Assembly (NCBI GenBank): GCA_050298055.1
Contig: JBNKTL010000037.1
Span: forward strand, 1 to 49,282
Source: Spirochaetota bacterium
GTDB lineage: Bacteria > Spirochaetota > UBA4802 > UBA5550
Length of the DNA: 49,282 nucleotides
Direction of reading: 5' to 3'
In this document: one piece after another, positions 1 through 18,909 of the stretch
Layout: every line of letters begins with the position of its first letter
Position numbering within the stretch: position 1 is the stretch's first letter
Notes under the pieces: generated by a model
The model's database searches: none
Told to the model about the DNA's origin: nothing
Seen by the model: the letters and a program-made list of their open reading frames with translations, nothing else
Translations under genes and position numbers: made by a program

Positions 1-1817
1 GCAGGCTGGGTAATATATGTTTCATTGATCAATTCTGAAGTTTTATCGGTTTTTCCTCCTCCTGGGAAAATAATATCACGAAGATCGACATCTATAAAAG
101 GCTTCAGGTATTCAGAACATTCATCAATAAGTTTCTGAAATATCTTTTCTTCTTTATAAAGACCGGAGCCCATGTTTACGTATTGTGCCCCCTGGCCGGG
201 AAACATGAAAGAGACAGGCCTGTTCACTATATCGGTTTTATTTATCGGTCTGTTTTCATTCAGGTTTTCTTCAAGTTGATCAATACAATCTTTATTTTCA
301 TGACAAATGATGAAATCTCTGTACATAAATTCCTTTCGGCCTGTTTTCAGTGTATAAGCCGCATCAGCTATGTTGATTTCCGGATTTATCCGGAGGTAAT
401 CCCTGAATGCGGTTTTTGACCCTGATAAAGAGTTATCGGTTTTACCGGAAAAAGTCAATATTTGCCATGGTCTTGTGGGCCCTGGACTATCCGACCGAAA
501 AGCTTCTTCAAGTATTGCATGGGCATTGGTGCCGCCAATACCAAAGGAGCTTACTCCTGCTCTTCTCGGGGTATTATCTGTTTCCCAGTCAATCAATTCG
601 GTATTAATATAAAACGGGCTCTCCATCAATTTCAATGCAGGGTTTGGTTTTTGAAAGTGTAAGAGGGGAGGGATTTTCTTTTTTTCCAGGCAGAGAGCAG
701 TTTTAATGAGTCCCGCAACTCCTGCTGCGGCGTCCATATGCCCGATGTTAGTTTTTACAGATCCGATTGCACAGTATCCTCGTTTTTCTGTTCCTGTACG
801 GAATACTTTTGTCAGGGCTGAAATCTCAATGGGGTCCCCAATGGGTGTCCCCGTGCCATGTGTTTCAATATAGGATATTGTTTCCGGGTGGACTTCAGCC
901 AGAGCCTGGGCCATTGCTATGACTTCTGCCTGGCCGTCAACACTGGGTGCGGTAAATCCCGCTTTTAATGAGCCGTCATTATTAATGGCACTGCTTCTAA
1001 TTACGGCATAGATATGGTCTCTCTCATTGAGAGCGTCTTCCAGCCTTTTAAGCACCACCACTCCCACACCCTCGCCAAAGACCGTTCCGGACGCTTCGGA
1101 ATCAAATGCTCTGCAATAGCCGTCGGGAGACAAAATGATCCCTTCCTTATGAAGATACCCGGTTTTTGGAGGGACTATAACAGTAGCGCCTCCACCCAGG
1201 GCCATATCACATTGATAGTTCAAAAGGCTCTGACACGCGAGATGTATGGAAACCAGTGAAGTAGAACATGCAGTCTGAATGTCAATACTCGGTCCCTTCA
1301 GGTCCAGCTTGAATGAAACCCTTGTTGTCAGATAATCCTTTTCATTTCCAATCATTGTGATAAAATCCCCAACGGTTTTTACTTGGGGGCTGTTGAGAAG
1401 GGCTTTGATCAGATAATTATTAATGCTGCACCCGCCAAAGACGCCAATTGATCCATCGTACTTTCCCGGGTCATATCCTGCATTTTCCAGGGCAAGCCAT
1501 GAGTGTTCGAGAAACAGCCGGTGCTGAGGGTCCATTATTTCCGCTTCCCGGGGAGTATAACCGAAAAAGTCAGCATCAAAAAGGCTGCTGTCTTCAAGAA
1601 CGGCGCTCATTTTCACATAGTTGGGATTCTGTATTAGATTTGGATCAATTCCAGCCGCAAGCAGCTCTTCATCACTGAAAGTCGTATATCCGTCTTTCCC
1701 ATTGATAAGATTTACCCAGAATTCATCAATATTTTCAGCTCCGGGGAACAATCCTGACATCCCGATTATGGCAATACTATTGTCCGGAATATTATTATTT
1801 TTATTGTAATCACTCAT
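1..1817 (-). CDS. Type I PKS, KS domain plus start of AT domain; truncated by the window edge
   Basis: Hand translation from ATG 1817: MSDYNK..SIAIIGMSGLFPGA, MDPQHRLFLE, DIQTACSTSL (catalytic Cys), ETHGTGTPIGDPIE, GSVKTNIGH, then the AT start FMFPGQGAQY. Not in the ORF track. Confidence 0.95.
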   Translation of the reverse strand, partial: MSDYNKNNNIPDNSIAIIGMSGLFPGAENIDEFWVNLINGKDGYTTFSDEELLAAGIDPNLIQNPNYVKMSAVLEDSSLFDADFFGYTPREAEIMDPQHRLFLEHSWLALENAGYDPGKYDGSIGVFGGCSINNYLIKALLNSPQVKTVGDFITMIGNEKDYLTTRVSFKLDLKGPSIDIQTACSTSLVSIHLACQSLLNYQCDMALGGGATVIVPPKTGYLHKEGIILSPDGYCRAFDSEASGTVFGEGVGVVVLKRLEDALNERDHIYAVIRSSAINNDGSLKAGFTAPSVDGQAEVIAMAQALAEVHPETISYIETHGTGTPIGDPIEISALTKVFRTGTEKRGYCAIGSVKTNIGHMDAAAGVAGLIKTALCLEKKKIPPLLHFQKPNPALKLMESPFYINTELIDWETDNTPRRAGVSSFGIGGTNAHAILEEAFRSDSPGPTRPWQILTFSGKTDNSLSGSKTAFRDYLRINPEINIADAAYTLKTGRKEFMYRDFIICHENKDCIDQLEENLNENRPINKTDIVNRPVSFMFPGQGAQYVNMGSGLYKEEKIFQKLIDECSEYLKPFIDVDLRDIIFPGGGKTDKTSELINETYITQP

Positions 1818-1844
1818 ATATGGCCTTTACATAGATTCCGGATA

Positions 1845-2879
1845 CTAATTATTATTTTTGCCCATATTTTCAAGACTTTCCTTCTCAATGTCAAGTGCGC
1901 TTATTATTGAATCAAGTTCTTCACGGGGTTGCCGATTGATTTTCCCAAGAGCTCCATCTCTTGTTAAATGCCCTTTTCTAATAAGATGGCTTAATTCAAG
2001 TTCATAGGGATTATATCCCAGTTTTTTTTCATGAACATAATTGTTGAAAATATTTAATCTGCAGTTGGACGAACATCCGTCCACATCGCCAGGTTCTTTC
2101 CAGCCAATTCTTTTCACGTTTTGAATAAGTTCATTTTCAGTTATCTCTTCAAGGCAGAGGAGGTTAATGTTATACGGATATGACTTTATACTCTTTAAAA
2201 CATCATCCGAAATCGACAGGTAATCATCAACCGAATCTCCCACATATTCTCTTAACCTGTCCATCTGTGATTTCCGGCTCTCCTGAAGAAAGCTGTAGTT
2301 GCTTTGGAAAATAATTGAATTCGCCGGTATTTGCCCCAGTGTAAATCCTGAGATGATAAAGGGGATCTTCTTTTCAAGTGCAATTTTTAAAGCGGAAAGA
2401 TTGACAATGGAGATACAGGAATTACATACGGATGATATCCTTTTCAGTGTCACCGGGCTGTATATTTCTTTTAACGCGCTTGCCCTGATAATGGATTTCA
2501 TGAATTTCGATGAGGGTTTATATGTTATATGGTCTACCCCAAGGTTATCAGTAATTCGTTTGATGTTTTCAAAAGCTGTGTGTGATAAAAAACCGTTGTC
2601 CAGAGTAAATGAAAGGACTTTAAGCCCGTATTTTTCAACGGCAAGTTTCAGGGTATAGGTGCTGTCTTTTCCACCGCTGTAACAGATAAGAGCATCGTAT
2701 CCTGATGTGTGGGATTTTCTCTCAAAAAGGTCCCGGACTTTATCCCGCGCATTCTTGATTGCACCGGTGTCAGTTCCCGCTATTATTTCATTTCTACAGA
2801 AATTGCAGACTCCATTCTCATCAAATTTAATACCGGGAAAAGCAGATGTCATTACGCATTGAGAACATCTTTTTGCCAT
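1845..2879 (-). CDS. PP-loop adenine-nucleotide alpha-hydrolase (ANH) family ATPase, N-acetyl-sugar amidotransferase/WbpG-like
   Basis: CSQC..CNFC N-terminus, YSGGKDS PP-loop, CNSC and CSSNC motifs. Alternative TTG start at 2888 overlaps the ACP stop. Confidence 0.75.
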   Translation of the reverse strand: MAKRCSQCVMTSAFPGIKFDENGVCNFCRNEIIAGTDTGAIKNARDKVRDLFERKSHTSGYDALICYSGGKDSTYTLKLAVEKYGLKVLSFTLDNGFLSHTAFENIKRITDNLGVDHITYKPSSKFMKSIIRASALKEIYSPVTLKRISSVCNSCISIVNLSALKIALEKKIPFIISGFTLGQIPANSIIFQSNYSFLQESRKSQMDRLREYVGDSVDDYLSISDDVLKSIKSYPYNINLLCLEEITENELIQNVKRIGWKEPGDVDGCSSNCRLNIFNNYVHEKKLGYNPYELELSHLIRKGHLTRDGALGKINRQPREELDSIISALDIEKESLENMGKNNN

Positions 2880-2884
2880 ATTGA

Positions 2885-3127
2885 TCAATTTCCCATCTCT
2901 CTTTTTATAAAATCAACAATCTTCAATACAGAACCAAAGTTGTCTCTGTTCATCTGGTCTTCATGTATTGCAATTGAAAATTCTTCTTCAATAAAACCGG
3001 CAATTTCTACCAGGCCGAAGGAGTCGATGATACCCTGGTCTATCATTGATTCATTTAAATTAATGTCTTCTGTCTCAACCATGAAGTTGAGGCAGATAAA
3101 TCCGAGAAGTTTATCCTGTATTTCCAT
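2885..3127 (-). CDS. Stand-alone acyl/aminoacyl carrier protein
   Basis: 80 aa, acidic, GIIDSFG phosphopantetheine site. Confidence 0.92.
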   Translation of the reverse strand: MEIQDKLLGFICLNFMVETEDINLNESMIDQGIIDSFGLVEIAGFIEEEFSIAIHEDQMNRDNFGSVLKIVDFIKREMGN

Positions 3128-3136
3128 TTCATCCTG

Positions 3137-5131
3137 TCAGTTATCAGTTGCTTGAGCGGAATAATCAATAATTTCGACATTTTTTGTACTGCTATTCAGA
3201 GTGTGAATCTGTGGATTATCAATCCAGTATTTTACAATCTGGGCAGAAAGTATAAAAGTTATGATCATATTATCACGGTATCCCACTTGCTCCGGAGTTT
3301 TATTTTTAAATTTGTGGAGAAGTCTTGCAACAAATTTTTCATTAAAAATTTCATATTTATTTATCATTTCCTTTGAGAGAAAATGTTCTGTATTTTTTGT
3401 AGGTTTCCCATTTCTGAAAAAAGACTTTAGGTCCGGAGCCTGGTAGGGGAGTTTCGGCCTGTTAATGATTGATCCCGGAATTTTATCTGCGAATGTTTTT
3501 TTCAGAAGATGCTTCTGTGAGAGACCATGAAGTTTAAATGAATCTTTATAATAGAATGTCTTTTCAACAATTCTGTGGTCCAGGAAAGGATAACGGCCCT
3601 CTACGCTGTGTGCCAGTGACATCCTGTCTCCCTGGGAAGAGAGGAGGTATCCGGAAAGGAGCGATTTCATTTCGAGAAACTGGTTTTTCTGCAGGAGAGT
3701 CCATGACGGGAAATTATCCGGGAGGGTCTTCCTGATTTTTTTCAGAAGTTCATCTTTGTCAAATTTAATTTTATGGTCTTTGTTTAAATAATTGGTAATT
3801 ATTTTATTGTTTCCTGTTCTGATATTAAGGCCGGTCAACTCATTGTCGAAGTCATCAACAAATCCTTCGTAATACATCCTGATAAAACCGGACCGTCGGC
3901 TTTCCCTGTAATGGCGAAGGTGTGGGTAAAGATTGCCAAGTATTTCATTGATCTTCTCTGATTCCGGATCTTTTCGCCAGAGGTCCAGCAGGACCAGTTC
4001 CTTAAAGGAATCATAACCGAAGAGAATTTCATCGGCAGCCTCCCCGGTCAGTACGACTTTAATCCCGTTTTCATGAACAGACCTTGAAAGAAGGTAGAGA
4101 GGAACAGGGGCAGTCCTGAAAACCGGCCGCTCCGTGTGATAAATGGCATTCATGAAATTACTGTCAATGAGATCATAATCGATTTTGATTTCATGGTGAT
4201 CGGAATTAATTGAGTTGACCATCTCTTTCTGGTATCGGGATTCGTCATAATCCCTGTCTTCGAATGCAATTGAAAAAGTTTTAAAACGCTCTCCCATAAT
4301 TTCTGAAGTCAGGTGAGTGGTAACCGATGAGTCTATCCCGCCGCTCAGATAGCATGCTACGGGAACATCACTTCTTAACCGCAGTCTTACTGAATCTTTG
4401 AGCAGTGTCCTAAACTCTTCGCACGCATCATCAAACCCGGAAGGTGAACTCCCATTGGATTCACCGATTTCATAATAACGGTGTTTTGCAGGATTTTCAC
4501 CGATTTTGTAAATTTCAAATGTTCCCGATGGAAGAATTCGTATATTCTCAAAAACAGTACTTTCATCAATTGTGTTCCATAAAAGGGCATGTTCATACAG
4601 GTTCTGAATATTAAAAGCCCGCTGGTAGTTTTCAATGAGATCGAATGCTTTTAACTCAGATGAGAAATAAAAGCGGTTGTTATGGTTCAAAATGTAGAGA
4701 GGTCGGATGCCATAGCGGTCCCGGGCTGCTATTAGTTTCTTCTCAATCCTGTCCCAGATGATGAGAGCAAACTGGCCATTAAATTTAGCGAAAGCATCGT
4801 ATCCGTAAACTTCAAATGATCTGAGAACAACTTCGGTGTCGCTGTTTGTTTTAAAAGCAACTCCCTTCTTTTCAAGTTCTTCACGAAGTTCGATGTAGTT
4901 ATAGACTTCCCCGTTATAAATGAGAACAAATCTCTCGGTCATCATTGGTTGATCACCGGTATTTAAGTCAAGGATTGAAAGCCGGGTATGGCCCAGCGCG
5001 ACATCACCAGATAGATAGATACCCCATCCGTCCGGACCGCGATGTGCCAGAGTAGAGACCATTTTTCTGATCTCACTTTTTCTGCTGTTTCGATCATCAT
5101 CCCTATAAAGTATTGCAGCAATCCCGCACAT
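3137..5131 (-). CDS. asnB: Asparagine synthetase (glutamine-hydrolysing)-like amidotransferase
   Basis: MCGI Ntn Cys, HRGPD, LSGGIDSS, LTGEAADE, DRMSLAHSVEGRYPFLD. Confidence 0.93.
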   Translation of the reverse strand: MCGIAAILYRDDDRNSRKSEIRKMVSTLAHRGPDGWGIYLSGDVALGHTRLSILDLNTGDQPMMTERFVLIYNGEVYNYIELREELEKKGVAFKTNSDTEVVLRSFEVYGYDAFAKFNGQFALIIWDRIEKKLIAARDRYGIRPLYILNHNNRFYFSSELKAFDLIENYQRAFNIQNLYEHALLWNTIDESTVFENIRILPSGTFEIYKIGENPAKHRYYEIGESNGSSPSGFDDACEEFRTLLKDSVRLRLRSDVPVACYLSGGIDSSVTTHLTSEIMGERFKTFSIAFEDRDYDESRYQKEMVNSINSDHHEIKIDYDLIDSNFMNAIYHTERPVFRTAPVPLYLLSRSVHENGIKVVLTGEAADEILFGYDSFKELVLLDLWRKDPESEKINEILGNLYPHLRHYRESRRSGFIRMYYEGFVDDFDNELTGLNIRTGNNKIITNYLNKDHKIKFDKDELLKKIRKTLPDNFPSWTLLQKNQFLEMKSLLSGYLLSSQGDRMSLAHSVEGRYPFLDHRIVEKTFYYKDSFKLHGLSQKHLLKKTFADKIPGSIINRPKLPYQAPDLKSFFRNGKPTKNTEHFLSKEMINKYEIFNEKFVARLLHKFKNKTPEQVGYRDNMIITFILSAQIVKYWIDNPQIHTLNSSTKNVEIIDYSAQATDN

Positions 5132-5132
5132 T

Positions 5133-8100
5133 TTATTCCTTTTTTCTTATGTCCATAAGTCTGCGTTTCTGCCCGTATGATTTTTTTTGTTTGTCAATTC
5201 TTTCAACTGTTTTTTGATCAATTGGAGAAGTATCATTCTTTTTCGTAAGATATTCTGCAAGAGTGTTTATTGTTGGATAGCGGAAAAGAAGAGTAATATC
5301 AACCTCTTCCCTCAGTGAAACAGACAGCATTCTTCGTACCTGGATCATAAGAATTGATGTCCCCCCCAGGTTAAAAAAGTTGTCATTAATACTTATTGCG
5401 TCTAAACTAAGAATATTCTCCCATGTGGAAGCAATAATTCTCTGAATATCGTTTTGAGGTTTAATTATCTCTTCATCAATCCGATTGCTGCGCCAGTCAG
5501 GTTCGGGGAGTTTCGATGTGTCCAGCTTTCCGTTATGGGATAATGGAAAAGCCTCCAGAAACATAAAAAAAGAAGGGACCATATATGCCGGTATTCTCTC
5601 ACTGAGGAATTGACGGATTTCATTAGGGTCTATCCTGTTTACTTCATTTGCAATGATATAAGCCACAAGACGTTTATCACTTGATGAATAATTTTTTGCG
5701 ACAACAGCAGATTTGATTATACCCGGGAAATTATCCAGCTGTGATTCAATCTCTCCCAGTTCAACACGGTGGCCCATTAGCTGTACCTGGCGGTCAGTCC
5801 GGCCGGCAAATTCAATATTTCCGTCATTCAACCAGCGTGCCAGGTCCCCGGTTTTATAGATAATACAGTCTTTTTCACCTCTCCTGAAAGGATTCGGGAG
5901 AAAACGTTCCCGGGTAAGATCTTCACGGTTTAAATATCCCCGCGCAAGCTGTCTTCCGCCGATATAGAGTTCTCCGTATACTCCGGGAGGGAGAGGATTC
6001 ATAGATGGATCAAGAATATACATATATGTATTGGCGATAGGTTTCCCGATAGGTACGGTTATTGTGCGGCTGTTTCTTTTACATTCATATGCAGTAACAT
6101 CAATCGATGCTTCCGTAGGCCCATAGAGATTATGGAGTCTTGATGAGAACAGTTTGAAAAATTTATTTTGTACTGAAACGGGAAGTTCTTCACCGCTGCA
6201 TATAACATCTCTCAGTGATGTACATTCTTTTGCGCCGGGTTCTTCGAGAAACTGATTCAGCATGGAGGGAACAAAATGTAATATTGTTATATTTTCATCT
6301 TTTATGATTTTTATAAGGTTTGAATTATCCCTGTGTGTACCGGGTTCTGCCATAACAAGGCTGGAGCCTGATATAAAAGGCAAAAAGAACTCCCATACTG
6401 ATACATCGAAACCGAATGGAGTCTTTTGGAGGATGCAGTCTTTTGGGGACAGTCCGTATTCATCTTTCATCCATAACAGACGGTTGCATATTCCCCTGTG
6501 TGTTATTTCAGCTCCTTTTGGTTGGCCGGTAGAACCTGAAGTATATATTACATAGGCAAGGTTGTCCTGTGTGGTTCTGCATTCAGGGTTTTCAGAATTC
6601 TTTATATTCTCAAGTTCATCAGAATTGACAGTTATTGTCTTAATATGACCCGCTTTATCGATTTTTGAAAGGTCATTTTTTAGATGCTCCTGGGTTAATA
6701 GAATGGGTATTTTGCTGTCCTCAATAAGATATTCAATGCGCTTTTGGGGAAGCGAGGGATCAAGAGGAAGGTAAGCACCGCCTGACTTCAATACTGCAAC
6801 GAGTGCAATTGCCATCTCAAGGGAACGTTCCATGTAGACCCCGATTATTGTTTCAGGGCCTGCTCCGCAGTCTATCAACTTGTGAGCAAGCCTGTTTGTC
6901 TTTTTGTTAAAATCGTCATATGACAGGCTTGTATTTTTAAATCGTACTGCTGTATTTTCCGGAGTTTTTTCAACCTGTTTTTCAATAAGCTGATGGAGGC
7001 AGATCATATCAGGATATGTCACATCGGTAGCGTTCCATTCACGTAGCAGTTTATCAAGATCGTTTTTATTCAGCAAGGGGAGGGCCGCGGCATTCTTTTC
7101 AGGATCGGACAGGGACGATTTAAGGAGAGTCAGGTATGAATTTGTGATCTGGATAATTGATTCTTCCTCAAACAGATCGGTATTATATTCAATATGTCCA
7201 TTAATTGAATTCTCAGATTCATACAATCGTAAGAAAATATCCAGCTGTGATCCATTACCCTCTATTGTTAAAGGTTTAATTTCAGTATTATCCAGGGTCA
7301 GAAACATAGGGGCTTCAAATGTAAATCCTGATTGAAAGAGTGGATTTAACCGCGCGTTTCTTTTATCCGGGAATACCTTGACGATAAATTCATAAGGAAC
7401 TTCCTGGTTCCTGTGTGCCTCCAGCATTCTTTGTCTGATCTGTTTCAGTATTGAATTGAATGATGGATTATTTGAAAAACTAACAGGTATCGGAAGGATG
7501 TTGACAAAACACCCCATAATACCCTTGTGTTTTTCCTCGCGTCTGTTTGTCAATGGAACGCCGATAATAATCTCTTCCTGACCGCAATACCTGTAGAGAA
7601 GCAAGGAATAAACAGAGAGAAGAACAAGAAAAATACTGGTCCTGTGAGTATTACAGAATTCTTTTAAATTACTGCAGAGCTGCTGATTAATATGAAAAGG
7701 ATGTGTTTTCCCATTGAGAGATGCGATCTGAGGGCGTATTTTATCCGCAGGAAATTCAAGGACACAGTTCTTCTTTTCTAATAGCTCCTTCCAGTATGAA
7801 AGCATGTTTTTGAACTTCTCGGAATCAAGAAAATTCAATTGCCATTCACAATAATCTCTGTACTGATAGGACGGTCCATTTGTGGTGAGATCTTTGTTAG
7901 CAAGTAACTCATTATATATACAACCCAATTCTTGAGAAAACAATTCCTTTGAAGTAAGATCAATCAGGATATGATGAATAACCAGAGATAAGATAAACAG
8001 CTTTTCGTCCAGTTTAAAAATCCTGATCCGAAATAAGGGCCAGTTACTCAAATCAAATTGAAATGATGTTTCCGATTTCAGAATTTGCTCAATGGCTGGA

Positions 8101-8399
8101 TCTCTTTTTTCCGGAAAAATATTGCTTAAGTCTTCAACGGGTATACACAGCTGTTTTGAATCCAGGATTTTCTGTTTAAGTTCGTCATTATAATGCGTAA
8201 AGATTGTACGGAATATTTCATGTCTTTTAATCATCTCATTGATACTTCTTACAAAGATATCAGGATTGAAATTACCGGAAATTTTAAAAAATGAAGAGAT
8301 ATTGTAAGCTGATGATTCCGGATGTAACTGGTTTATGAGCCAGAATTGTCGCTGGATTATCGAAGCCGGATATATTTTTTTATCGTTGAGTTCATTCAT
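5133..8399 (-). CDS. NRPS module C-A-T
   Basis: C domain HHILID; A domain YTSGSTGQPKG, FDVSVWE, NLYGPTE, YKTGDL, NGKLD; PCP FFNLGGTS. Confidence 0.96.
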   Translation of the reverse strand: MNELNDKKIYPASIIQRQFWLINQLHPESSAYNISSFFKISGNFNPDIFVRSINEMIKRHEIFRTIFTHYNDELKQKILDSKQLCIPVEDLSNIFPEKRDPAIEQILKSETSFQFDLSNWPLFRIRIFKLDEKLFILSLVIHHILIDLTSKELFSQELGCIYNELLANKDLTTNGPSYQYRDYCEWQLNFLDSEKFKNMLSYWKELLEKKNCVLEFPADKIRPQIASLNGKTHPFHINQQLCSNLKEFCNTHRTSIFLVLLSVYSLLLYRYCGQEEIIIGVPLTNRREEKHKGIMGCFVNILPIPVSFSNNPSFNSILKQIRQRMLEAHRNQEVPYEFIVKVFPDKRNARLNPLFQSGFTFEAPMFLTLDNTEIKPLTIEGNGSQLDIFLRLYESENSINGHIEYNTDLFEEESIIQITNSYLTLLKSSLSDPEKNAAALPLLNKNDLDKLLREWNATDVTYPDMICLHQLIEKQVEKTPENTAVRFKNTSLSYDDFNKKTNRLAHKLIDCGAGPETIIGVYMERSLEMAIALVAVLKSGGAYLPLDPSLPQKRIEYLIEDSKIPILLTQEHLKNDLSKIDKAGHIKTITVNSDELENIKNSENPECRTTQDNLAYVIYTSGSTGQPKGAEITHRGICNRLLWMKDEYGLSPKDCILQKTPFGFDVSVWEFFLPFISGSSLVMAEPGTHRDNSNLIKIIKDENITILHFVPSMLNQFLEEPGAKECTSLRDVICSGEELPVSVQNKFFKLFSSRLHNLYGPTEASIDVTAYECKRNSRTITVPIGKPIANTYMYILDPSMNPLPPGVYGELYIGGRQLARGYLNREDLTRERFLPNPFRRGEKDCIIYKTGDLARWLNDGNIEFAGRTDRQVQLMGHRVELGEIESQLDNFPGIIKSAVVAKNYSSSDKRLVAYIIANEVNRIDPNEIRQFLSERIPAYMVPSFFMFLEAFPLSHNGKLDTSKLPEPDWRSNRIDEEIIKPQNDIQRIIASTWENILSLDAISINDNFFNLGGTSILMIQVRRMLSVSLREEVDITLLFRYPTINTLAEYLTKKNDTSPIDQKTVERIDKQKKSYGQKRRLMDIRKKE

Positions 8400-8560
8400 A
8401 GGTTATTCTTATATTGCATAATAAATATACAGATTCGCATTATGTGTTTAAAAAAAGAATGATATTTGAAAAAAAAACATTATTTATATAAAAATTTGGT
8501 GTAAAATTATCCGATTAGTGTATTATATGTCAATAAATCTATGAATAATGGGAAATAAAT

Positions 8561-8902
8561 ATGGATTATAAAATTCAAAATCGTAACGGCATCATGCTGA
8601 TCAATCCTTTTGGTGATATGGACCAGTTTTTTAATTCAGGGAAAAACAATGATATTGTTAACAATATTATGGAAAATCCAGACTCCCATCTCATTATAGA
8701 CTTTTCCGACTGCATTTCAATAAACAGTTCGAGTGTCAAAATGCTTTATAAATTAATCAACAAATATAATGATAATGATAAAGAGATTGCACTCTGCAAT
8801 GTTAATACCGAGGTGGAGGATATCTTTAAAATCGCAGACCTGATAGATAAAGTCAGCATTTATAAATCAGAAAAGGAAGCAATTGGTTCTTTTGAAAATT
8901 AA
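8561..8902 (+). CDS. STAS domain anti-sigma-factor antagonist
   Basis: 113 aa with IIDFSDCISINSSS and LCNVN..VEDIFKI. Confidence 0.85.
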   Translation: MDYKIQNRNGIMLINPFGDMDQFFNSGKNNDIVNNIMENPDSHLIIDFSDCISINSSSVKMLYKLINKYNDNDKEIALCNVNTEVEDIFKIADLIDKVSIYKSEKEAIGSFEN

Positions 8903-8916
8903 TCTCATTATAATGA

Positions 8917-10386
8917 TTATCTTCCTTCCGCACCAATAACAACTTTTAATGTTTTGAATAATATCAGAAAGTCCATCTTTAGTGACCAGTTGTCAATATA
9001 TTTCAAATCAAGTTCCATCCACTGCCTGAAACTCAAATCATTTCTTTTTGGGGCAATCTGCCACAGGCAGGTAATTCCCGGCTTCATTGAAAGACGCCTC
9101 CTCTGCCAGATATCATATTGTTCCACTTCTTCCGGAATGGGGGGTCTTGGCCCCACCAGGCTCATCTCTCCTTTGAAAACATTTAAGAGCTGGGGTAGTT
9201 CGTCAAGACTTGTTTTTCTCAGTATTGTCCCGATAAAGGGAATAATCCGGGGGTCCTTTTTGATTTTAAATGCCGGACCGTCGGCCTCATTAAGTGCCTG
9301 AAGTTCCTTTAGTTTAGCTTCGGCATCTTTTACCATGGTCCTGAATTTATAACAGAAGAAGTTCCTCCCATTGAGTCCCAGTCGTTCCTGTTTGAAAAAG
9401 ATAGGTCCCTTTGAACTCATTTTTATCAGGATCATGATCAGGATAAAAAATGGTGAAATTAAGAGGAGTATTATCCCCGATAATGCTATATCAAACATGT
9501 TTTTAATAAGAAGATCCCTGTGCTTTGAACTTGTTGTGGAAAGCAGCATTGTGGGTATGCCGCAAAAATTGTCAAACATCATGGTTGCGATATTCGGCTG
9601 ATAGACCATGGCCTGAACATGCCATTCAGGAATGATTCGTACTTTTACGCCTATCAGTTCGATAAGCACCAGGTAAGAATCCACAGACTCTATCTGCCTC
9701 AGGGGCATTGCAAAGACAATCTCATCAACTACATGATTCAGCAGTATATTTTTGAGGTCATCCACTGTTCCTATGACCTCCACATCATTTTCAACAACAG
9801 TTCCAACTTTATCCTTATCAGCTTCCAGGCACCCGATGATCTTAATATCCGATTGGGATGAATATATATTTTTGATTACATTCTTTGCCCTTTTTTTACT
9901 CCCTATAATAATTACGTTGTAGATGTAATGCTCATTTTGTCTGAATGTTTTCCAGATTTTAAACACGACAAGGTGTGAAAAAAGTATAAGAAAGAGATTG
10001 AAAATATAGAATATCCCGATTAAGATCCTGCTTATATTTGAAATATTAAAAAGATAGAGGGAAGTGATAAGGATTATCATGCCGATGCTCACAGACTTGG
10101 TGACATTCCAGAGAATGTGCCTGAAATCCTTATTGAAGTCAAAATATGCCCAGTAAACTTCAAATAATCTGAAGACAATATACCAGACTATTATTATTGC
10201 CAGGAGTACGATATAATAATTTGGTGATTCGGTCAATCCGCCATAAGGGTGAGGAAGAAGGTATTTTTTAGTAAAATAAGCCCCCACAAAAGAGACAACT
10301 GTCAGACTAATATCTATAAAAGTATGGAGCTGTATAATCAGGGCTTTTTTCCTGAATATCTGTGATGTAAGAATTTTGTCAGGCAA
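8917..10386 (-). CDS. Polyprenyl-phosphate glycosylphosphotransferase (WcaJ-like priming sugar transferase)
   Basis: N-terminal TM helices, a central Rossmann-like domain, KFRTM, DPR, SLDELPQLLNV, MSLVGPRP, KPGIT. TTG start with GGAGG RBS. Confidence 0.93.
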   Translation of the reverse strand: MPDKILTSQIFRKKALIIQLHTFIDISLTVVSFVGAYFTKKYLLPHPYGGLTESPNYYIVLLAIIIVWYIVFRLFEVYWAYFDFNKDFRHILWNVTKSVSIGMIILITSLYLFNISNISRILIGIFYIFNLFLILFSHLVVFKIWKTFRQNEHYIYNVIIIGSKKRAKNVIKNIYSSQSDIKIIGCLEADKDKVGTVVENDVEVIGTVDDLKNILLNHVVDEIVFAMPLRQIESVDSYLVLIELIGVKVRIIPEWHVQAMVYQPNIATMMFDNFCGIPTMLLSTTSSKHRDLLIKNMFDIALSGIILLLISPFFILIMILIKMSSKGPIFFKQERLGLNGRNFFCYKFRTMVKDAEAKLKELQALNEADGPAFKIKKDPRIIPFIGTILRKTSLDELPQLLNVFKGEMSLVGPRPPIPEEVEQYDIWQRRRLSMKPGITCLWQIAPKRNDLSFRQWMELDLKYIDNWSLKMDFLILFKTLKVVIGAEGR

Positions 10387-10733: not shown

Positions 10734-11987
10734 ATGAAAAAAATTGTACTATTTTTGTTTTCTTTCTTTTATATTATAACCGGATGCAGTACCGGGACAA
10801 TGAAATCGTCATCATCAATCAATAAGAAGTTTGCCCAGGCGGTACTCTCAGATAACCTGGAACTTGCAAAAGAATTAATAAAAAAAGGGGCAGATATTAA
10901 CATAAGGGGGAACAGAAACAGGACGCTTCTCCACATAGCTGCAGGGTCAAACAAACACGGCTTAACATTATTGCTTATTAATAACGGGGCTGATGTTAAT
11001 GCCCGGGATTCCAACGGAGATAGCCCCCTTCACATGGCAGCATTAAATCTCGATATGGAGATAATAAAACTCCTTGTAGAAGAAGGGGCGGATATTAATA
11101 TCAGAAATCGATTTGGAGAAATCCCGCTCTATCATATCATTACATCACCGCTGCACAAAAACGGAATTGTCTCTCTGAAAAGCTCACAGGATGATATCCC
11201 CTCAATATTTCCTAACAGGGGTTCCATTACATCATATTTCGGCTGGAGGAGGTCCCTGTGGCACAAAGGAAACGATTTTCACCTGGGAATTGATATTGCC
11301 GCTCCTCCGGGTACTGAAGTCAGGGCCACAGCACAGGGGATTATTGTGAAAGCGGGCATGAACAAAGGTTATGGGAACTATGTTAAAATTAAACATAGTT
11401 CCGGATTTTCAACCCTCTATGCTCACCTGAAAAAAATTATAACATTCCAGGGATGCAGTGTAAAGAAGGGGGAGGTCATTGGACTGGTGGGCAGTACAGG
11501 TAATGCAACCGGCCCCCACTGCCATTATGAGATCAGGGACTGTGGGGCAATTGTCAACCCGTATCCCTACCTGCATGGCAAAACCCTGGATGAGATCAAC
11601 AGGGAAGCTGTTTATGAAATGACTGCTCTTTTTATTCAAAAAGGTGTGGATTTAAACTACAGAACAGAGTTGGAAAGAACACTTTTGCATGAGGCAGCGG
11701 TAAAGGATTATAAACTTGCGGAATTGCTGGTTAAAAAGGGCGCAGATATAAATAGGAAGGATTATAAAGGGAGAACACCCCTTCATGAGGCTGTCAGGGC
11801 AAACAGGATTAAAATAGCTGTTCTGTTATTACAAAAAGGTGCCGAGGTCAATTCCAGAACCTCTGCAAAGTTCAAAGATCTTAATTCAATTGTCTATCCT
11901 GAAAAATGTACACCATTGAAAATTGCCAGCTTATCCGGATTTTCCCGTATGGTGCATGTCCTTAAAAAATTTGGCGCCAGGGAGTAG
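10734..11987 (+). CDS. Lipoprotein with ankyrin repeats and an internal M23 peptidase domain
   Basis: Lipobox ITGC; ankyrin TLLH/SPLH/TPLH..GADVN repeats on both sides; M23 HLGID and TGPHCHYE motifs. Confidence 0.88.
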   Translation: MKKIVLFLFSFFYIITGCSTGTMKSSSSINKKFAQAVLSDNLELAKELIKKGADINIRGNRNRTLLHIAAGSNKHGLTLLLINNGADVNARDSNGDSPLHMAALNLDMEIIKLLVEEGADINIRNRFGEIPLYHIITSPLHKNGIVSLKSSQDDIPSIFPNRGSITSYFGWRRSLWHKGNDFHLGIDIAAPPGTEVRATAQGIIVKAGMNKGYGNYVKIKHSSGFSTLYAHLKKIITFQGCSVKKGEVIGLVGSTGNATGPHCHYEIRDCGAIVNPYPYLHGKTLDEINREAVYEMTALFIQKGVDLNYRTELERTLLHEAAVKDYKLAELLVKKGADINRKDYKGRTPLHEAVRANRIKIAVLLLQKGAEVNSRTSAKFKDLNSIVYPEKCTPLKIASLSGFSRMVHVLKKFGARE

Positions 11988-11990: not shown

Positions 11991-12185
11991 AAATCAGTTC
12001 CAAGTTTCGTGTTCCGGGTTCCGAGTTGAAGAGTGCTGCCACGAGAAGTCAGGTAACATAATAATCTGTTTTTTCATAAATAGTTGCGTTTCACTTGCCG
12101 GGACAAGGAATGCTAAACTGATACCTGTTCGGTGTTTGTTCTTAAAATAAGTCGGAACACGGAACTCGAAACACGAAACTGATTT
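11991..12185. repeat. 37-bp imperfect inverted repeat built from 7-mers (GTTYCRW-like)
   Basis: Arms 11991-12027 and 12149-12185, 31/37 match by hand alignment. Confidence 0.75.
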
Positions 12186-12610
12186 TATAACGTTCCCAGT
12201 AAGAAAACCATAACAAACAGGGCAACAGTTTCTATTACTCCTACGACCATAATATAGTTTCCAAAACCTTTTCCCGTCTCAGCTAATGCATCAGATCCGC
12301 TTGCTCCTGCTTTCCCCTGGAAAAGGGCAGATAAACCGATAGCCATTCCACCGAGAAGGCCAACAGCCAGTTTTATTCCGGGATCAGCAGAAGAGTCCTT
12401 GATGGCATTCATAAGAATCATACCGTAAATTGTCTGTGAAAGGGGTGCTCCCACAAAAGCTACAAGAAGGAATGGCGCAGGTCTGTTCTGAACAAAACAT
12501 TTTTTCCATGCGCCGATAGCAGCCATTCCGGCAGTACCGGTTCCCAGTGCAGATCCGAAGGCCCCGAATGCCAATGCTGCTGCGAAACCGAATTTGGTGA
12601 GAAGTTCCAT
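12185..12610 (-). CDS. atpK: V-type ATP synthase subunit K
   Basis: Duplicated proteolipid with GAPLSQTIY and GVIETVALF; last gene of the operon. Confidence 0.93.
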   Translation of the reverse strand: MELLTKFGFAAALAFGAFGSALGTGTAGMAAIGAWKKCFVQNRPAPFLLVAFVGAPLSQTIYGMILMNAIKDSSADPGIKLAVGLLGGMAIGLSALFQGKAGASGSDALAETGKGFGNYIMVVGVIETVALFVMVFLLGTL

Positions 12611-12651
12611 AGTTATTATCTCCTTAGATACTTATTGAGTTTATTAATTTT

Positions 12652-12750
12652 TACTACTTGGATTTAGTTTAAATATTCATAGTGATAAAAATATAAATTA
12701 TATTTCCCTGCCGCCTTCAGGGGCGGAGAAATATCAGATATGTTTTTTAA
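12652..12750. repeat. Degenerate copy of the MITE-like repeat with GC hairpin
   Basis: ccctgccgcc-ttcag-gggcggagaaatatcagatatgtttttt resembles 44897-44940. Confidence 0.5.
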
Positions 12751-12783
12751 AATAAAATATATCATACACCGGTTATAAGAGTA

Positions 12784-14583
12784 TTAATTTTTTTTAAATG
12801 GTTTATATGAAAACCCTGACCATTCCATGCTCAGGTGTCCCGAAAACTCGAGCATGTTAAGCCTGACACCGTGCACAATCAGAGACATGCAACCTAAAAT
12901 GATATTTAACCCGTGACCGAAAAAAAGAATAAAAGCGCTTCCCAGTATGGCAACAACTCCTGATCCGAGACCTGCAGCCATTGCATTAAAACTCTTTGCA
13001 ACCTCCAGGGTCGCGAGGCCCACCGCAAAAAGTCTCACATAAGAGACAATATCCGAGAAAAACCCGATACTTCCCAGGGAAATGAGGATAAGGTTTGAAA
13101 GACCGTTGACGATCCCCTTTATAAAATTTCCTTCCTGTTCTGAGAATATTATCACGGCTCCCAGGCCCCCGAGAAGTATATGCAAAGCGTACGGATGGGA
13201 GGGAAACTTCAGGACCAGGGCCCTTATGAGAAGATAGAGTCCCCAGAGAACTCCAAGCCAGCCGATTTCCGCGTATGCTTTCAATGAGGGAAACAGCCTG
13301 ATAAAATTGAGAAGGTGAGCAACACTCAGGTGTACGGCGCCGATAATGAAGCAGATATGCATGATAAACTTATCAACATTCCCCTGGGCCAGTGATTTGA
13401 AGCTGGCAATCTGAGGTACAAGCATCCAGGAAACGGCCGGATGTGTGGCAAATGATTCCACTCCGAACCAGTTCCCTGACATCCCGCCCCAGGCGATCGT
13501 TGTTATACTTGTTACAAAAAGGAGAAGGAACGGCTCAAAAGGGACCTTTTTGAATTTGATCCTGGAGAATATTGTTATTGCAAGGAATATCAAACCGTAA
13601 CCCGCGTCCCCGATTATCATCGCCCAGAAAACACTGAAGAAGAGGAGGAACCACATACTGATGTCAAATTCCTTATATCCGGGTATGGTCCCCAGGAGCC
13701 CGAAAACAGGTTTGATGGCGTTGATCCACCGGGGATTTTCCACAAGCGTGGGAACATTGTCATCATCGGTGGGATCGCTGATCATAACACCCCAGCCGTT
13801 ATCTGCCGCGGTTTTCTTTATTTTGCCGTCAAGACGGGCAGGGGCAAAACCTGTTATAAAGGAGATGCGTTCTTCATTGTTCATGCTGTTTACGGCAGTT
13901 TCAAATTCAATGAGCTCATCCAGCTGTTTGAGACCTGAATTGAGGAGGTCCTTCTTATCAGTTAAGGCTTTTATATCGTTATCAACAATTTCCCGTTCTT
14001 TCTTCTTCTCTGCCAGTACCCGGTTTAAATCTGAAAGTGATGTTTCCGGGAGACTGATTTCATCAAAGGGAAGTTCTTCGAATCCCTCTGTAAAAACTGC
14101 CGCAAGTTTCGTGGTCACTTTTGTCTTTTCAATTGTAAAAATTTTGACATTTTCAGGGAATTGCGCAAGTTGTTCTTTGGTGACTTCATAAAGCCTTATA
14201 TCGACTCCCTTCTCTCTTAATTGATCAATATCATTTCTGTTGAAATCACCCCATGATGAAAGCCTGTCAATTTCCCTTTCGTAGTGATGGATATCATCTG
14301 TCAGTGTGAAGTGCTTCTGGCATTCCCCGTCAATTTTTTCAGCAACGAGAAGTGCGGATTCAAGACCTGTTGTTTTATCCTGCTCTAAACTCTCTTCACT
14401 TTCGGGAAGAAGGGAGATTGCCTTTGATAAAAGGGCCTTTTTGGCCTGCAGTTCACCCAGTTTTTCATTTAATTCGCTTTCGGTTTCCAGGTGAACAACA
14501 CCCAGGTCCCTGAGCGTGTCCAGTGACTGCTGGATCTGGGATGTGAGTACAACCAGGGATATCTTCTTCATTTTTACAATCAT
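12784..14583 (-). CDS. atpI: V-type ATP synthase subunit I
   Basis: MIVKMKK start, GDAGYG, SDIVSYVRLFAVGLA, VHGVRLNMLEF. Confidence 0.95.
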   Translation of the reverse strand: MIVKMKKISLVVLTSQIQQSLDTLRDLGVVHLETESELNEKLGELQAKKALLSKAISLLPESEESLEQDKTTGLESALLVAEKIDGECQKHFTLTDDIHHYEREIDRLSSWGDFNRNDIDQLREKGVDIRLYEVTKEQLAQFPENVKIFTIEKTKVTTKLAAVFTEGFEELPFDEISLPETSLSDLNRVLAEKKKEREIVDNDIKALTDKKDLLNSGLKQLDELIEFETAVNSMNNEERISFITGFAPARLDGKIKKTAADNGWGVMISDPTDDDNVPTLVENPRWINAIKPVFGLLGTIPGYKEFDISMWFLLFFSVFWAMIIGDAGYGLIFLAITIFSRIKFKKVPFEPFLLLFVTSITTIAWGGMSGNWFGVESFATHPAVSWMLVPQIASFKSLAQGNVDKFIMHICFIIGAVHLSVAHLLNFIRLFPSLKAYAEIGWLGVLWGLYLLIRALVLKFPSHPYALHILLGGLGAVIIFSEQEGNFIKGIVNGLSNLILISLGSIGFFSDIVSYVRLFAVGLATLEVAKSFNAMAAGLGSGVVAILGSAFILFFGHGLNIILGCMSLIVHGVRLNMLEFSGHLSMEWSGFSYKPFKKN

Positions 14584-14586
14584 AGT

Positions 14587-15183
14587 CTATTGAACCTTAA
14601 CAATCTTATTCTTTGATATCTTTCCTCTTACAACAGCAGCTGTCTGCTGGTCGCCAAGAAAAATCTGAATGACCCTGATGTTATGCTTTGCTTCCGGGAT
14701 CTTCACTTTTTCAAAGAGGTTGACCCTCTGGGAAGTGACCCGGAGTTCTTCCCTGAGGAGTTCTTTCTGCTTTTCAAGAACCTTCATCTCTGCGAGAAGT
14801 TCATAAATTTTCATCAGTTCAATAACAGCCCTGTCAATCCAGAGTGGCGTGGTAAAAAGATCGTATTTCACCTCTTCGAATTCAACACCCTTGAAAAGTG
14901 GAATGTCAATACCTGCAACATTTCCCTGTTCCAGTGAGAGAGAAGACATTTTAACATATTCTTCAATTCTGACATCTTCTCCGAAAACATCAACCCAGTG
15001 AGAGATACTTTCCCGTATCCTGCCCAGTTCATTTTCCTTTTCATGATGGGCGTGTTCAACCTTCTGTATCTCCATCTGGAGCTGCTGTTTCTTCAGAATC
15101 AGCGTGGGGAGATACCTGTTGAATCTCTTCAGGTCGTCCTTCTGTTTTTTGAGTTCATTTTTTGTTAACTTTATTTTAGCCAT
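14587..15183 (-). CDS. atpD: V-type ATP synthase subunit D
   Basis: LTKNELK..YLPTL.LKK, TSQRVNLFEKVKIP. Confidence 0.95.
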   Translation of the reverse strand: MAKIKLTKNELKKQKDDLKRFNRYLPTLILKKQQLQMEIQKVEHAHHEKENELGRIRESISHWVDVFGEDVRIEEYVKMSSLSLEQGNVAGIDIPLFKGVEFEEVKYDLFTTPLWIDRAVIELMKIYELLAEMKVLEKQKELLREELRVTSQRVNLFEKVKIPEAKHNIRVIQIFLGDQQTAAVVRGKISKNKIVKVQ

Positions 15184-15204
15184 AGTAATAGTCTGTCGCT
15201 GTCC

Positions 15205-16509
15205 TTAGTTTTCATTTTTTCCCGGCCAGAATTTTTCCAGGAGACCTGTCCTGAGTCCCGTCTCTTCCGGTGTAAAACACTCCGCAAGAATATTCCACCC
15301 CTTGTCAAGGGCCTGTTCCAGGGGAATATTCACACTGAGGGCCATAAGTTCTTCCTCGAACATAACACCGTATTTAAGGAGCTTGTCGTCCCAATCGGAC
15401 ATTCGAAATCCCATTGCCTTCTTTTCAAGGGTCTCCTTGTAGGACGCGTAAAGTTTGATCATCCCGTCCATGAGGGCCCGGTGATCTTCACGTGTCTTGT
15501 CATTAACAAGCTGCTTGAGCCGCGAAAGGGAACCGAAGGGTTCAATCCTTCCGTTCTTAAGATAGAACTGTCCTTCGGTGATATACCCTGTATTATCAGG
15601 GACCGGATGGGTAACATCATCACCCGGCATTGTGGTAACAGCAAGAATTGTGATAGACCCGGCTCCTTCGAAGTCAACAGCTTTCTCGTATCGTGAGGCA
15701 AGCTGGCTGTAAAGGTCTCCCGGATAACCCCTGTTTGAAGGGACCTGTTCCATGGTAATGGCAATCTCCTTCATGGAATCCGAAAAGTTGGTCATATCGG
15801 TAAGGAGGACAAGGACCCTGCTTCCGCTAAGGGCGAATTTCTCCGCGACCGCAAGTGAGATATCCGGAACCATGAGACATTCAACCACGGGGTCAGCCGC
15901 TGTGTGAACAAAGAATATGGACCTGCTGAGTGAACCGCCTTCCTCAAGAGTTTCTCTGAAGAAGAGATAGTCGTCGTACTTGAGACCCATACCGCCGATA
16001 ATAATGATGTCAACTTCCGCCTGCATGGCTATTCGCGCAAGGAGTTCATTATAGGGTTCACCGGAAACAGAGAATATGGGAAGTTTCTGTGATTCTACCA
16101 GTGTGTTAAAGAGATCGATCATGGGAACGCCTGTCCGTACCATGTTACGGGGAATAATCCTTTTTGACGGGTTGACCGAAGGTCCCGCAATTTCGATGAG
16201 GTTCTCTTCCAGAGGGGACCCCGAATCTCTCGGTTCTCCCCGTCCGTTGAATATTCTTCCCAGAAGGTTATCCGAGAACGATACCTGCATGGGATGTCCG
16301 AGAAATCTCACCTCGTCACCGGTGGATACACCCCGGCCTCCCGAGAAGACCTGGAGAGAAACCCTGTCGTTGTTGAGCCTGATGACCTCGGCCAGAGACT
16401 TCCCGTGGGCTGATGTTATCTCGGCAAGCTCACCGTATTTGATATTATCAGCATGGACTGTAATAACGTTACCTGATATTTCTTCAATTCTACTGTATAT
16501 CTTTCGCAT
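15205..16509 (-). CDS. atpB: V-type ATP synthase subunit B
   Basis: [32 protein letters not shown]. Confidence 0.96.
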
Positions 16510-16545
16510 TTTTTGCCTCTAAAATTTCTTTGATAATTATATGGT

Positions 16546-18315
16546 TCAGCCGAACTGCCTGTTAAACTTTTCATCAATATCCTGTCCGGAATCACTTCTT
16601 TTTCCCGTGATCATCTCATTGATATCCTTTTCAAGGGACTTAAACTCGTCTGACTGGAATTCTGCTCCGTTCCAGTCGAGGAACTTCTGCCTCAGCTGGT
16701 TGAAGAATGTCCGTGAATGATCTTTGTCGGAGAGGTCGTAATTAGACAGGATTATTTTCAGTATCTGGTCGAAAACATATTCCTGTCTCTCTGCCGATGC
16801 CGCCACGTCAACCGGGTCGAAGGCGTTCTGCTGCAGATAAACAGCATCAAAGAATTCACTCTTTAAGTAGTTGATATAATCCTCGAGGCTTGTTCCCTCT
16901 TCACCCACAACCTTCATCATCTGACCGATCTCATCACCTCTGAAGAGAACGCTTCTGATATAATCGGTTTTTCTCGGATCGATGACCCCTTTGTATTTAC
17001 TCCAGCTTTCAAGGGGGTGGATGGCAGGATAGCGGCGGGCGTCAGATCTTTCCCGTGAGAGGCCATGGAAAGCCCCCACAACCTTCAGAGTTGCCTGGGT
17101 GACCGGTTCTTCGAAGTTTCCTCCAGCGGGGCTTACGGTCCCACCGATGGTAACCGAACCGATCTCTCCATCCTTCAGCCGGACAATACCGGCCCTTTCA
17201 TAGAAGGTCGCGATGACTGATTCGAGATAAGCGGGAAAGGCCTCTTCGCCGGGGATCTCTTCAAGACGTCCCGACATTTCACGCATGGCCTGTGCCCAGC
17301 GCGAAGTGGAGTCTGCCAGGAGAAGGGCGTTGAGCCCCATCTGCCTGTAATATTCCGCAAGGGTTACAGCTGTATAAACAGATGCCTCCCTTGCCGCGAC
17401 CGGCATTGAGCTTGTATTACAGATAATGATTGTCCTCTCCATAAGAGACTTCCCGGTTTTCGGGTCGGTAAGCTCGGGAAACTCCTTCAGGGTTTCAACA
17501 ACCTCACCTGCACGTTCACCGCAGGCGGCAATAATAACGATATCAACATCCGCGTAACGGCTTGTAAGCTGCTGCAGAACTGTTTTCCCCGCACCGAAAG
17601 GTCCCGGAATGCAGAAGGTCCCCCCCTGGTTAACCGGGAAGAGCGTGTCGATGATTCTGCTCTGTGTGACGAGAGGATCAACCGGTTTCAATCTCTCTTC
17701 GTAAACGTCAATGGCCTTCTTGACCGGCCAGAAGAAAGTCATAGTAAGAGGATAACTGTTTCCCCGTGAGTCTTCAATTTCGGCAATTTTATCATCAATT
17801 GTATATTCGCCCTGAGAAACAATGCTTTTTATTGTGTATGTTTCATACATATGAAAAGGGACCATTACCCTGTGGGTAAAAATACCCTCGGGAACTGTTC
17901 CAAGGGTATCCCCTCGTGCAACAGTATCGCCGGTTTTCGCAACGGGGGTGAACTTCCACTTTCTCTCCCTGTTGAGAGCCTGCAGGTAAACACCCCTGTC
18001 CAGGAAAAACCCGCACTGTTCCGCAAGCTGGGGCAGGGGATTCTGAAGACCGTCATAGATCTCACCGAGAAGTCCCGGTCCAAGTTCCACCGAAAGCAGG
18101 TCATCGGAGAATTCTACCGTATCACCGACACCGATCCCCTTGGTTATTTCAAAAACCTGCATCTCGGCCATTTTTCCTCTTATTCGAATAACCTCTGATT
18201 TGAGTTTCTTTTCACCCACAACAACATAGGCAACCTCGTTCAGGGAAACGTCTCCCTCAAACTCAACGGCTACCATGTTACCGTTTACACCGACTACCTT
18301 ACCAACGTTTGACAT
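16546..18315 (-). CDS. atpA: V-type ATP synthase subunit A
   Basis: GPFGAGKT Walker A, CGERAGE, ADSTSRWAQA, PGEEAFPAYL. Confidence 0.97.
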   Translation of the reverse strand: MSNVGKVVGVNGNMVAVEFEGDVSLNEVAYVVVGEKKLKSEVIRIRGKMAEMQVFEITKGIGVGDTVEFSDDLLSVELGPGLLGEIYDGLQNPLPQLAEQCGFFLDRGVYLQALNRERKWKFTPVAKTGDTVARGDTLGTVPEGIFTHRVMVPFHMYETYTIKSIVSQGEYTIDDKIAEIEDSRGNSYPLTMTFFWPVKKAIDVYEERLKPVDPLVTQSRIIDTLFPVNQGGTFCIPGPFGAGKTVLQQLTSRYADVDIVIIAACGERAGEVVETLKEFPELTDPKTGKSLMERTIIICNTSSMPVAAREASVYTAVTLAEYYRQMGLNALLLADSTSRWAQAMREMSGRLEEIPGEEAFPAYLESVIATFYERAGIVRLKDGEIGSVTIGGTVSPAGGNFEEPVTQATLKVVGAFHGLSRERSDARRYPAIHPLESWSKYKGVIDPRKTDYIRSVLFRGDEIGQMMKVVGEEGTSLEDYINYLKSEFFDAVYLQQNAFDPVDVAASAERQEYVFDQILKIILSNYDLSDKDHSRTFFNQLRQKFLDWNGAEFQSDEFKSLEKDINEMITGKRSDSGQDIDEKFNRQFG

Positions 18316-18903: not shown

Positions 18904-18909
18904 TTTTAA

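Follow-up and report, generated by a model that had tools for sequence, protein, structure and literature searches.

In glutarimide pathways, an AsnB-type amide synthetase paired with an acyl carrier protein (ACP) makes amidated starter units, whereas enzymes of the WbuX/WbpG type (TIGR03573) form amidines on sugars. The AsnB-type amidotransferase OxyD is described as the supplier of a malonamate starter (PMC7749508). In vitro, the AMDH domain of the cystobactamid enzyme CysH removes water from Asn held on a carrier (−18 Da), and CysH prefers Asn; the protein is dark brown, but a CxxCxxxC motif was not found in it (Gross et al. 2021, PMC7966384). CtaC, the thioamide synthetase of closthioamide biosynthesis, is described as an iron-sulfur (Fe-S) adenine-nucleotide alpha-hydrolase (ANH) which works on a free carrier and in which D77, S78, C154, C157 and C284 are essential (Dunbar 2019, PMC6772006). 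The ATP-dependent nitrile synthetases QueC/ToyM, ArtA/NitB and PesC are summarised in a preprint (PMC13060819), where CalN is described as kinase-derived. Here we analyze a stretch of 49,282 nt (the window, to which all coordinates refer) of contig JBNKTL010000037.1 from Spirochaetota bacterium GCA_050298055.1, in which genes for an AsnB-like enzyme, a free-standing carrier and a stand-alone ANH lie between genes for a nonribosomal peptide synthetase (NRPS) and a polyketide synthase (PKS). The best, albeit tentative, reading is that the three genes form a starter-unit module, in which a carrier-bound acid, perhaps malonyl, would be converted to an amide and then to a nitrile that serves as starter for the NRPS-PKS line.

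All five genes are on the minus strand; NRPS is followed by AsnB, ACP, ANH and PKS, with intergenic gaps of 1, 9, 5 and 27 nt. The first gene of the run (5133..8399) codes for a C-A-T module of 1088 amino acids (aa), with the motif HHxxxDL in the condensation (C) domain and the code DVWHISLID, which we take to be Ser-type, in the adenylation (A) domain. The AsnB-like glutamine-dependent amide synthetase (3137..5131, 664 aa) retains Cys1 and the SGGIDS PP-loop, carries the clade motif SSQGDR and exceeds the TIGR01536 cut-off (453 versus 267 bits). The 80-aa carrier (2885..3127) likewise exceeds the Pfam PP-binding cut-off (26.7 versus 20.8), while its best NCBIfam match, cispentacin AmcB, scores below cut-off; its phosphopantetheine serine, Ser36 (3020-3022), lies in the motif GIIDS, and D35 and S36 are invariant in 37/37 carriers compared. 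The ANH (1845..2879) comprises 344 aa from ATG, or 347 aa from an alternative TTG start at 2888. It contains 10 cysteines in 344 aa, an N-terminal CxxC...CxxC finger and an SGGKDS loop (2661-2678); Cys152, Cys155 and Cys273 are encoded at 2424-2426, 2415-2417 and 2061-2063, respectively. The type I PKS gene (3..1817), which codes for a KS with intact Cys-His-His residues and the start of an AT, is cut by the contig end. The initial annotation of three coupled genes between NRPS and PKS is thus confirmed in its coordinates as well as in the nature of the AsnB, the GIIDS carrier and the Cys-rich SGGKDS enzyme.

Contigs from a second sample span most of positions 1-9000 with single-letter differences and zero insertions or deletions, so the reading frames are not assembly artefacts; the sample belongs to the same study, and the agreement is not fully independent. 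The remainder of the PKS (end of the AT, ACP, TE) was absent from every contig searched in the assembly, and the cluster is therefore visible only in part in the window. Contigs from the possible source run likewise start at window position 1. Full-length homologues of the PKS have the organisation KS-AT-ACP-TE. A promoter scan returned a good consensus site upstream of the NRPS gene (8533-8506) among many other sites and was not used as evidence.

The stand-alone clade containing the window ANH, termed family A, has at least 120 free-standing homologues with identities of 55-63% (one 86%). The 120 best homologues listed are all free-standing, with lengths of 327-362 aa, and their source names include Spirochaetota, Bacteroidota, gammaproteobacteria and myxobacteria. 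Distribution is patchy: 2/401 genomes of the window's phylum contain family A, the window's own genome counted, and no member was found in 401 genomes of the phylum to which the genome of locus L001 (see below) belongs. A scan of metagenome contigs with an alignment of 116 ANH sequences returned 66 loci, from which profiles for counting the neighbours were built. Among the 58 loci whose flank measures 300 nt or more, 54 have the carrier gene directly upstream of the ANH gene (exceptions L026, L028, L041 and L089), and AsnB is encoded nearby in 41/42 loci with at least 1 kb of flank (exception L028), in 28 cases in the same run and in 13 on the opposite strand; carrier and ANH genes are still together in these 13 loci. 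All 26 loci of at least 8 kb contain AsnB, 22 an NRPS C domain and 19 a KS, besides genes for an alpha/beta hydrolase with a hydrophobic N-terminus (13 loci), a methyltransferase (8), an OafA-type acyltransferase (6) and a phosphopantetheinyl transferase (PPTase; 6). With dozens of loci showing it, the arrangement goes far beyond what chance would produce. The synteny of asnB, ACP and ANH genes, which the initial annotation had suggested looking for, is hence conserved, as part of a five-gene cluster family spread over several phyla. The NRPS A domains of these clusters are, as we presume from their codes, mostly Ser-type (DVW) or Gly-type (DIL), with both types in several clusters; the C domains across the family mostly show HHxxxDL instead of the usual HHxxxDG. 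A divergent locus, L088 (45% identity), contains AsnB, carrier and ANH genes but neither NRPS nor PKS over 7.5 kb on the upstream side and 9.9 kb on the downstream side, indicating that the triad can stand alone. This minimal version (L088:5352-10995) also includes genes for a small nucleotide-kinase-like ATPase and an MFS transporter.

The relationship of the ANH to described enzymes was analyzed in trees of 140 rows (FastTree) and 43 rows (IQ-TREE without mixture model), leaving out fragments and rows without the PP-loop pattern and thinning inserted copies at random; the AMDH clade was set by the motifs printed in Suppl. Fig. 10 of PMC7966384. Family A formed a clade of its own (99/99) and the AMDH inserts another one (100/100) which excludes family A, with WbuX-type proteins outside; deeper branches were weakly supported, and both runs warned of long branches among the WbuX rows. 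Identity of the window ANH is 27-33% to the AMDH clade, as compared to 21-25% to WbuX-type proteins. A search for longer proteins identified NRPS modules with a whole ANH domain inserted in the A domain (30-35% identity), in which the core motifs published for CysH and related proteins recur. A one-protein search of the genome contigs returned only two AMDH-type NRPS loci. Like the AMDH domains of CysH and of AlbIV from the albicidin pathway, as far as these are documented in print, the ANH has a size of 38 kDa, a Zn-finger start, and the motifs SGGKDS, CxxC, GxxxGQ and WxxPxD...S[ST]NC, and it would share with AMDH the use of a carrier-bound primary amide, whose dehydration to the nitrile is established in vitro for CysH. 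The core motifs read GLSRGQFFETRL and DTGRSTNC in AMDH versus GFTLGQIP and DVDGCSSNC in the ANH. AMDH is inserted in an Asn-loading A domain; the ANH, by contrast, is a free-standing protein with about 30% identity to it and has AsnB and a free carrier as partners. Family A (19/19), its stand-alone sister clade B (5/5) and two insert groups (15/15 and 16/16) all keep C152, C155, C273, G182-Q183, W260, P263, S270, N272 and N276 unchanged, and D72, C152, C155 and C273 are invariant in 116/116 sequences of the ANH alignment. Because AMDH thus has a CtaC-type cysteine triad, this triad may explain the brown colour of CysH. Judged from trees and motifs, the ANH represents a separate stand-alone clade, distinct from both the WbuX sugar enzymes and the CysH/AlbIV-type AMDH inserts, and the AMDH clade is its nearest characterised relative by sequence. 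The initially proposed relationship to the CysH/AlbIV insert holds insofar as ANH and insert are homologous over their full length and the same in size; it does not extend to membership in the AMDH clade.

The model of the ANH structure is confident (pLDDT 92). Among solved structures, 8WEX, an N-acetyl sugar amidotransferase, is clearly the best match (Z 23.8, rmsd 4.3, 324 aligned residues, 19% identity) and shares with the ANH the overall fold including the N-terminal finger. The next matches are tied at Z about 11-12 (ArtA with Z 12.1, LarE, NcsA, TtuA, NadE and YcfA) and do not separate nitrile enzymes from sulfur enzymes. A complex prediction of ANH, carrier, Fe-S and ATP gave a median of 0.22 at a mark of 0.32 and was not used either way. 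The WbuX model TIGR03573 is the best hidden Markov model (HMM) match as well, yet the ANH reaches only 158.6 bits at a cut-off of 203.2, with two other family members at 147 and 140. Among the controls, 4/4 annotated single-domain WbuX-type proteins passed (213-339 bits), and an AMDH-type insert scored 147.6. Moreover, the Cys triad was absent from six WbuX-type rows sampled, including two fusions with a glutaminase, of which the one that was scored fell below the WbuX cut-off, and WbuX-type enzymes have HisH/HisF or a fused glutaminase as partner, not a carrier. Trees, HMM scores and the lack of the triad in the WbuX-type rows agree with the initial view of a carrier-linked unit, as the ANH does not group with WbpG/WbuX-type sugar-nucleotide enzymes.

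The inserted copies provide an indication of the amide to be expected. Of 151 copies with a readable A-domain code, 136 are DLTK.GE-type, which we take to mean Asn, 11 are DAQD-type, presumably Gln, and 4 are others. As 147/151 copies reside in Asn- or Gln-coded modules, the inserted enzymes would receive a ready primary carboxamide. Stand-alone ANHs are paired with AsnB and inserts with Asn/Gln modules; it is chiefly this pattern that points to a carrier-bound primary amide as the substrate, and only primary amides can lose water to give a nitrile. The ANH/AMDH clade hence seems to act on primary amides, and in the window AsnB would make the amide. Clade B consists of ANH genes that occur with genes for a carrier, an exosortase-type acyl-AMP ligase and AsnB, often also with a NadE-like gene (L018:14764-19860; L020, L021, L023, L024, L118-L125 and L127). 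It was detected in 13/401 genomes of the window's phylum, and genome G034 carries both cassettes side by side. The carrier is present in 13/14 clade B loci, and 10/14 have the gene for a separate acyl-AMP ligase next to that of the ANH; the cognate AsnB is adjacent in 7/14 loci and encoded elsewhere in the genome (62-71% identity) in 5 of the other 7, i.e., it occurs in 12/14 genomes.

In the favoured route from carrier-bound acid to amide to nitrile, a dicarboxylic acyl group would be loaded onto the free carrier, the simplest case being malonyl delivered in trans by the AT of the PKS or by FabD. The presence of genes for a FabD-like AT and acetyl-CoA carboxylase flanking the cluster in one lineage (L035, L037, L040), together with the OxyD precedent, suggests malonyl as the cargo. 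AsnB, with its intact motifs and the chemistry of its family, would then adenylate the free carboxylate and amidate it with glutamine nitrogen. From gene context and general background, this step resembles the OxyD and glutarimide systems, where an AsnB-like enzyme beside a carrier makes an amidated starter; those systems, however, stop at the amide and have no ANH partner, whereas here the acceptor would be an NRPS C domain. The ANH, probably an Fe-S enzyme with a three-Cys cluster and a Zn finger, may activate the primary amide with ATP, as is typical of the superfamily, and eliminate to the nitrile, on the model of the AMDH domain of CysH. Amide adenylation and elimination to a nitrile are also the logic of QueC/ToyM, ArtA/NitB and PesC, which nevertheless belong to other subfamilies (8-9% identity to ArtA) and for which no carrier-protein substrate is described in PMC13060819. 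Going by domain order, the C domain would join the starter (with malonyl as cargo, a cyanoacetyl group) to Ser, or in other clusters to Gly or Ser plus Gly, and the PKS would add one malonate. The TE would then release the product or transfer it to an acceptor, which in some lineages may be a surface polysaccharide.

Several observations weigh against this route. No carrier loader is conserved in the family A cassette, and malonyl is a guess from one lineage. Family A does not fall within the AMDH clade, and in this superfamily the chemistry changes freely at 30% identity; the trees were built without CtaC and CysH themselves, and CtaC, CysH and AlbIV were compared by printed motifs only. Locus counts contain near-duplicates (e.g., L035/L037/L040, L050/L053/L059/L081 and L054/L057/L078) and therefore show conservation rather than independent events. 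The argument from the inserted copies involves presumed code meanings and copies most of which are related flavobacterial proteins, and the cognate AsnB was not found in 2/14 clade B genomes, nor in two relatives without ANH. The best-known enzymes with the three-Cys motif insert sulfur, and a family A member appears in the top-100 BLAST list for CtaC. That sulfur-relay or HisH/HisF genes were not found among the neighbouring open reading frames scanned, in part by a crude motif scan that covered all but some short or doubtful frames, speaks for the route, but since the closthioamide cluster is described without a sulfur-supply gene (PMC6772006), missing sulfur genes say little here. Finally, the AsnB-like PesC alone is reported in the preprint PMC13060819 to convert a carboxylate to a nitrile, so that a −18 Da shift could arise from AsnB alone.

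The most serious rival, which we regard as unlikely but worth pursuing, is a CtaC-type thioamide synthetase, i.e., an Fe-S ANH which adenylates the amide oxygen and swaps in sulfur, either at an AsnB-made primary amide on the free carrier or at a peptide bond on the NRPS carrier. The initial annotation overlooked this rival together with the CtaC-type three-Cys motif, although a family member is included in the CtaC table; its set of alternatives was therefore incomplete. Residues D77, S78, C154, C157 and C284 of CtaC match D72, S73, C152, C155 and C273 of the ANH in spacing. Both are stand-alone enzymes with a PP-loop and three cysteines of the Fe-S type, CtaC needs a free carrier-bound substrate (PMC6772006), and a free carrier is encoded alongside family A ANHs. 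TtuA, NcsA, LarE and YcfA occur among the fold matches, albeit tied with ArtA, NadE and others. WP_095366310.1, listed in Table S5 of Dunbar 2019 as a CtaC homologue from an NRPS/PKS cluster, shares a 90% cluster with P0079, which is 57% identical to the window ANH, and falls in family A; the family has accordingly been flagged in print as candidate thioamide synthetases. However, Table S5 is a BLAST top-100 list, in which proteins are listed by similarity alone. CtaC thioamidates secondary amides of poly-beta-alanine in a pathway described without AsnB (PMC6772006), whereas AsnB is nearly obligatory in family A, and AMDH, with the same three Cys, dehydrates its substrate without added sulfide (PMC7966384). 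The third Cys is embedded in SSNC in the ANH, as in AMDH, versus SSGC in CtaC, the latter being read from translated published primers and the alignment resting on these primer-derived motifs. The SSGC form occurred in 0 of the 150 best family-profile hits among 1.8 billion representatives. Together with the S[ST]NC motif common to ANH and AMDH, this weakly suggests that AMDH is nearer than CtaC.

Other divisions of labour appear improbable: iso-Asn formation by rearrangement, as in CysH, the ANH as loader of the carrier, or nitrile formation by AsnB in a PesC-like manner with the ANH catalyzing another step. AMDH is indeed reported to be an aminomutase as well (PMC7966384), there is the PesC precedent, no loader is conserved in family A, and the carrier resembles DltC/AmcB-type carriers which take amino or dicarboxylic acids. 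On the other hand, no Asp-coded A domain was found among the cluster NRPS modules read, clade B has its separate acyl-AMP ligase, and the inserted copies sit in A domains that already load. Of the two outcomes named initially, amide-to-nitrile conversion stands as the best reading, whereas rearrangement needs an aspartyl-type cargo, a loader for which was not found in the family A cassette.

Even less likely is amidine formation on the carrier, with the ANH activating the amide and ammonia, from the AsnB glutaminase or as free NH3, displacing the oxygen in a WbuX-like reaction on a non-sugar substrate. The closest solved fold, the best HMM and the glutaminase domain encoded next door are consistent with it; yet HisH/HisF or a fused glutaminase was not found in the window or among the neighbours scanned, while 3/4 of the above-cut-off WbuX-type proteins have hisH/hisF, the sampled WbuX-type proteins are without the Cys triad, and the AMDH insert scores equally on the WbuX model. 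It is very improbable that the ANH is a WbpG/WbuX-type enzyme whose substrates are nucleotide sugars or polysaccharide and that the carrier serves AsnB only. Polysaccharide genes do occur in the examined flanks of 9/26 long loci (OafA-type acyltransferase 6, Wza/Wzc-type 3), and the window cluster likewise adjoins one; but 17/26 have none there, the ANH is below a cut-off passed by all four controls and outside the WbuX group in both trees, and the carrier stays with the ANH operon when AsnB moves.

The polysaccharide gene next to the window cluster (8917..10386, minus strand) codes for an exopolysaccharide polyprenyl glycosylphosphotransferase (TIGR03025, 393 bits, cut-off 296) and is located upstream of the NRPS gene, separated from it by one gene for a STAS protein. 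Further along, the window contains a gene for a 417-aa protein with an M23 peptidase domain flanked by ankyrin repeats (10734-11987) and a complete V-type ATP synthase operon (K, I, D, B, A, DUF2764, E; 12185-19521). The best models for the latter are, we presume, of the spirochaete/chlamydia type, which suggests the host lineage.

Related ANH genes occur in other settings. Flavobacterial NRPS genes that combine the C-A(AMDH)-T organisation with an Asn-type code are common (P0121-P0240). A second insert group (P0162, P0361, P0411 and related proteins) includes the 11 Gln-type A domains; these modules are candidates for gamma-cyano-aminobutyrate formation, judging by their codes, and such a group is absent from the literature passages covered. 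At L001:782-14388, an AMDH-type NRPS gene lies beside genes for a carrier, a glycosyltransferase, Wza/Wzc and an OafA acyltransferase, a neighbourhood suggestive of capsule decoration with cyanoalanine or iso-Asn. On plasmid NZ_CP009349.1 of Bacillus thuringiensis, a related ANH (33%) is encoded together with AsnB (L093:10840-24933), with similar matches on other Bacillus plasmids. This cluster also codes for an esterase, an ACP, two adenylate-forming enzymes, two more carriers, a KS with a KS-like partner, a thioesterase, a dehydratase, a ketoreductase, a PPTase and a radical SAM protein, a make-up which we take to resemble the type II PKS-like set of cispentacin biosynthesis plus an amide/nitrile pair. 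Genome G000 additionally encodes, at L025:638-2683 (G000:C19), a WbuX-like domain with a fused class II glutaminase; the gene lies in a polysaccharide locus that contains a further AsnB, and the fusion represents the sugar-type counterpart of the ANH.

In the open literature, our searches did not come across a description of the AsnB-carrier-ANH module or of its product, although subscription papers and figures could contain relevant information. Each part has a known relative, and the module is a conserved, uncharacterised variant of carrier-dependent amide activation. For bacterial nitrile formation on carrier proteins, the AMDH insert is the only example, and a partly characterised one; for carrier-dependent thioamidation, it is CtaC. 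A three-protein system with motifs of both makes the question of nitrile versus thioamide directly testable by mass shift (−18 versus +16 Da), and it may correct the published guess that family A members make thioamides. In a wider picture, possible but rather more doubtful than the nitrile route as such, AsnB, carrier and ANH would form a portable module that supplies a cyanoacetyl starter via an Fe-S ANH to an NRPS-PKS line, decorating polysaccharide in some bacteria, while AMDH, family A and CtaC would make up one three-cysteine Fe-S branch in which the substrate amide sets the outcome. If this is true, a single Fe-S branch gives nitrile, iso-amide or thioamide depending on the substrate, which would also account for the brown colour of CysH.

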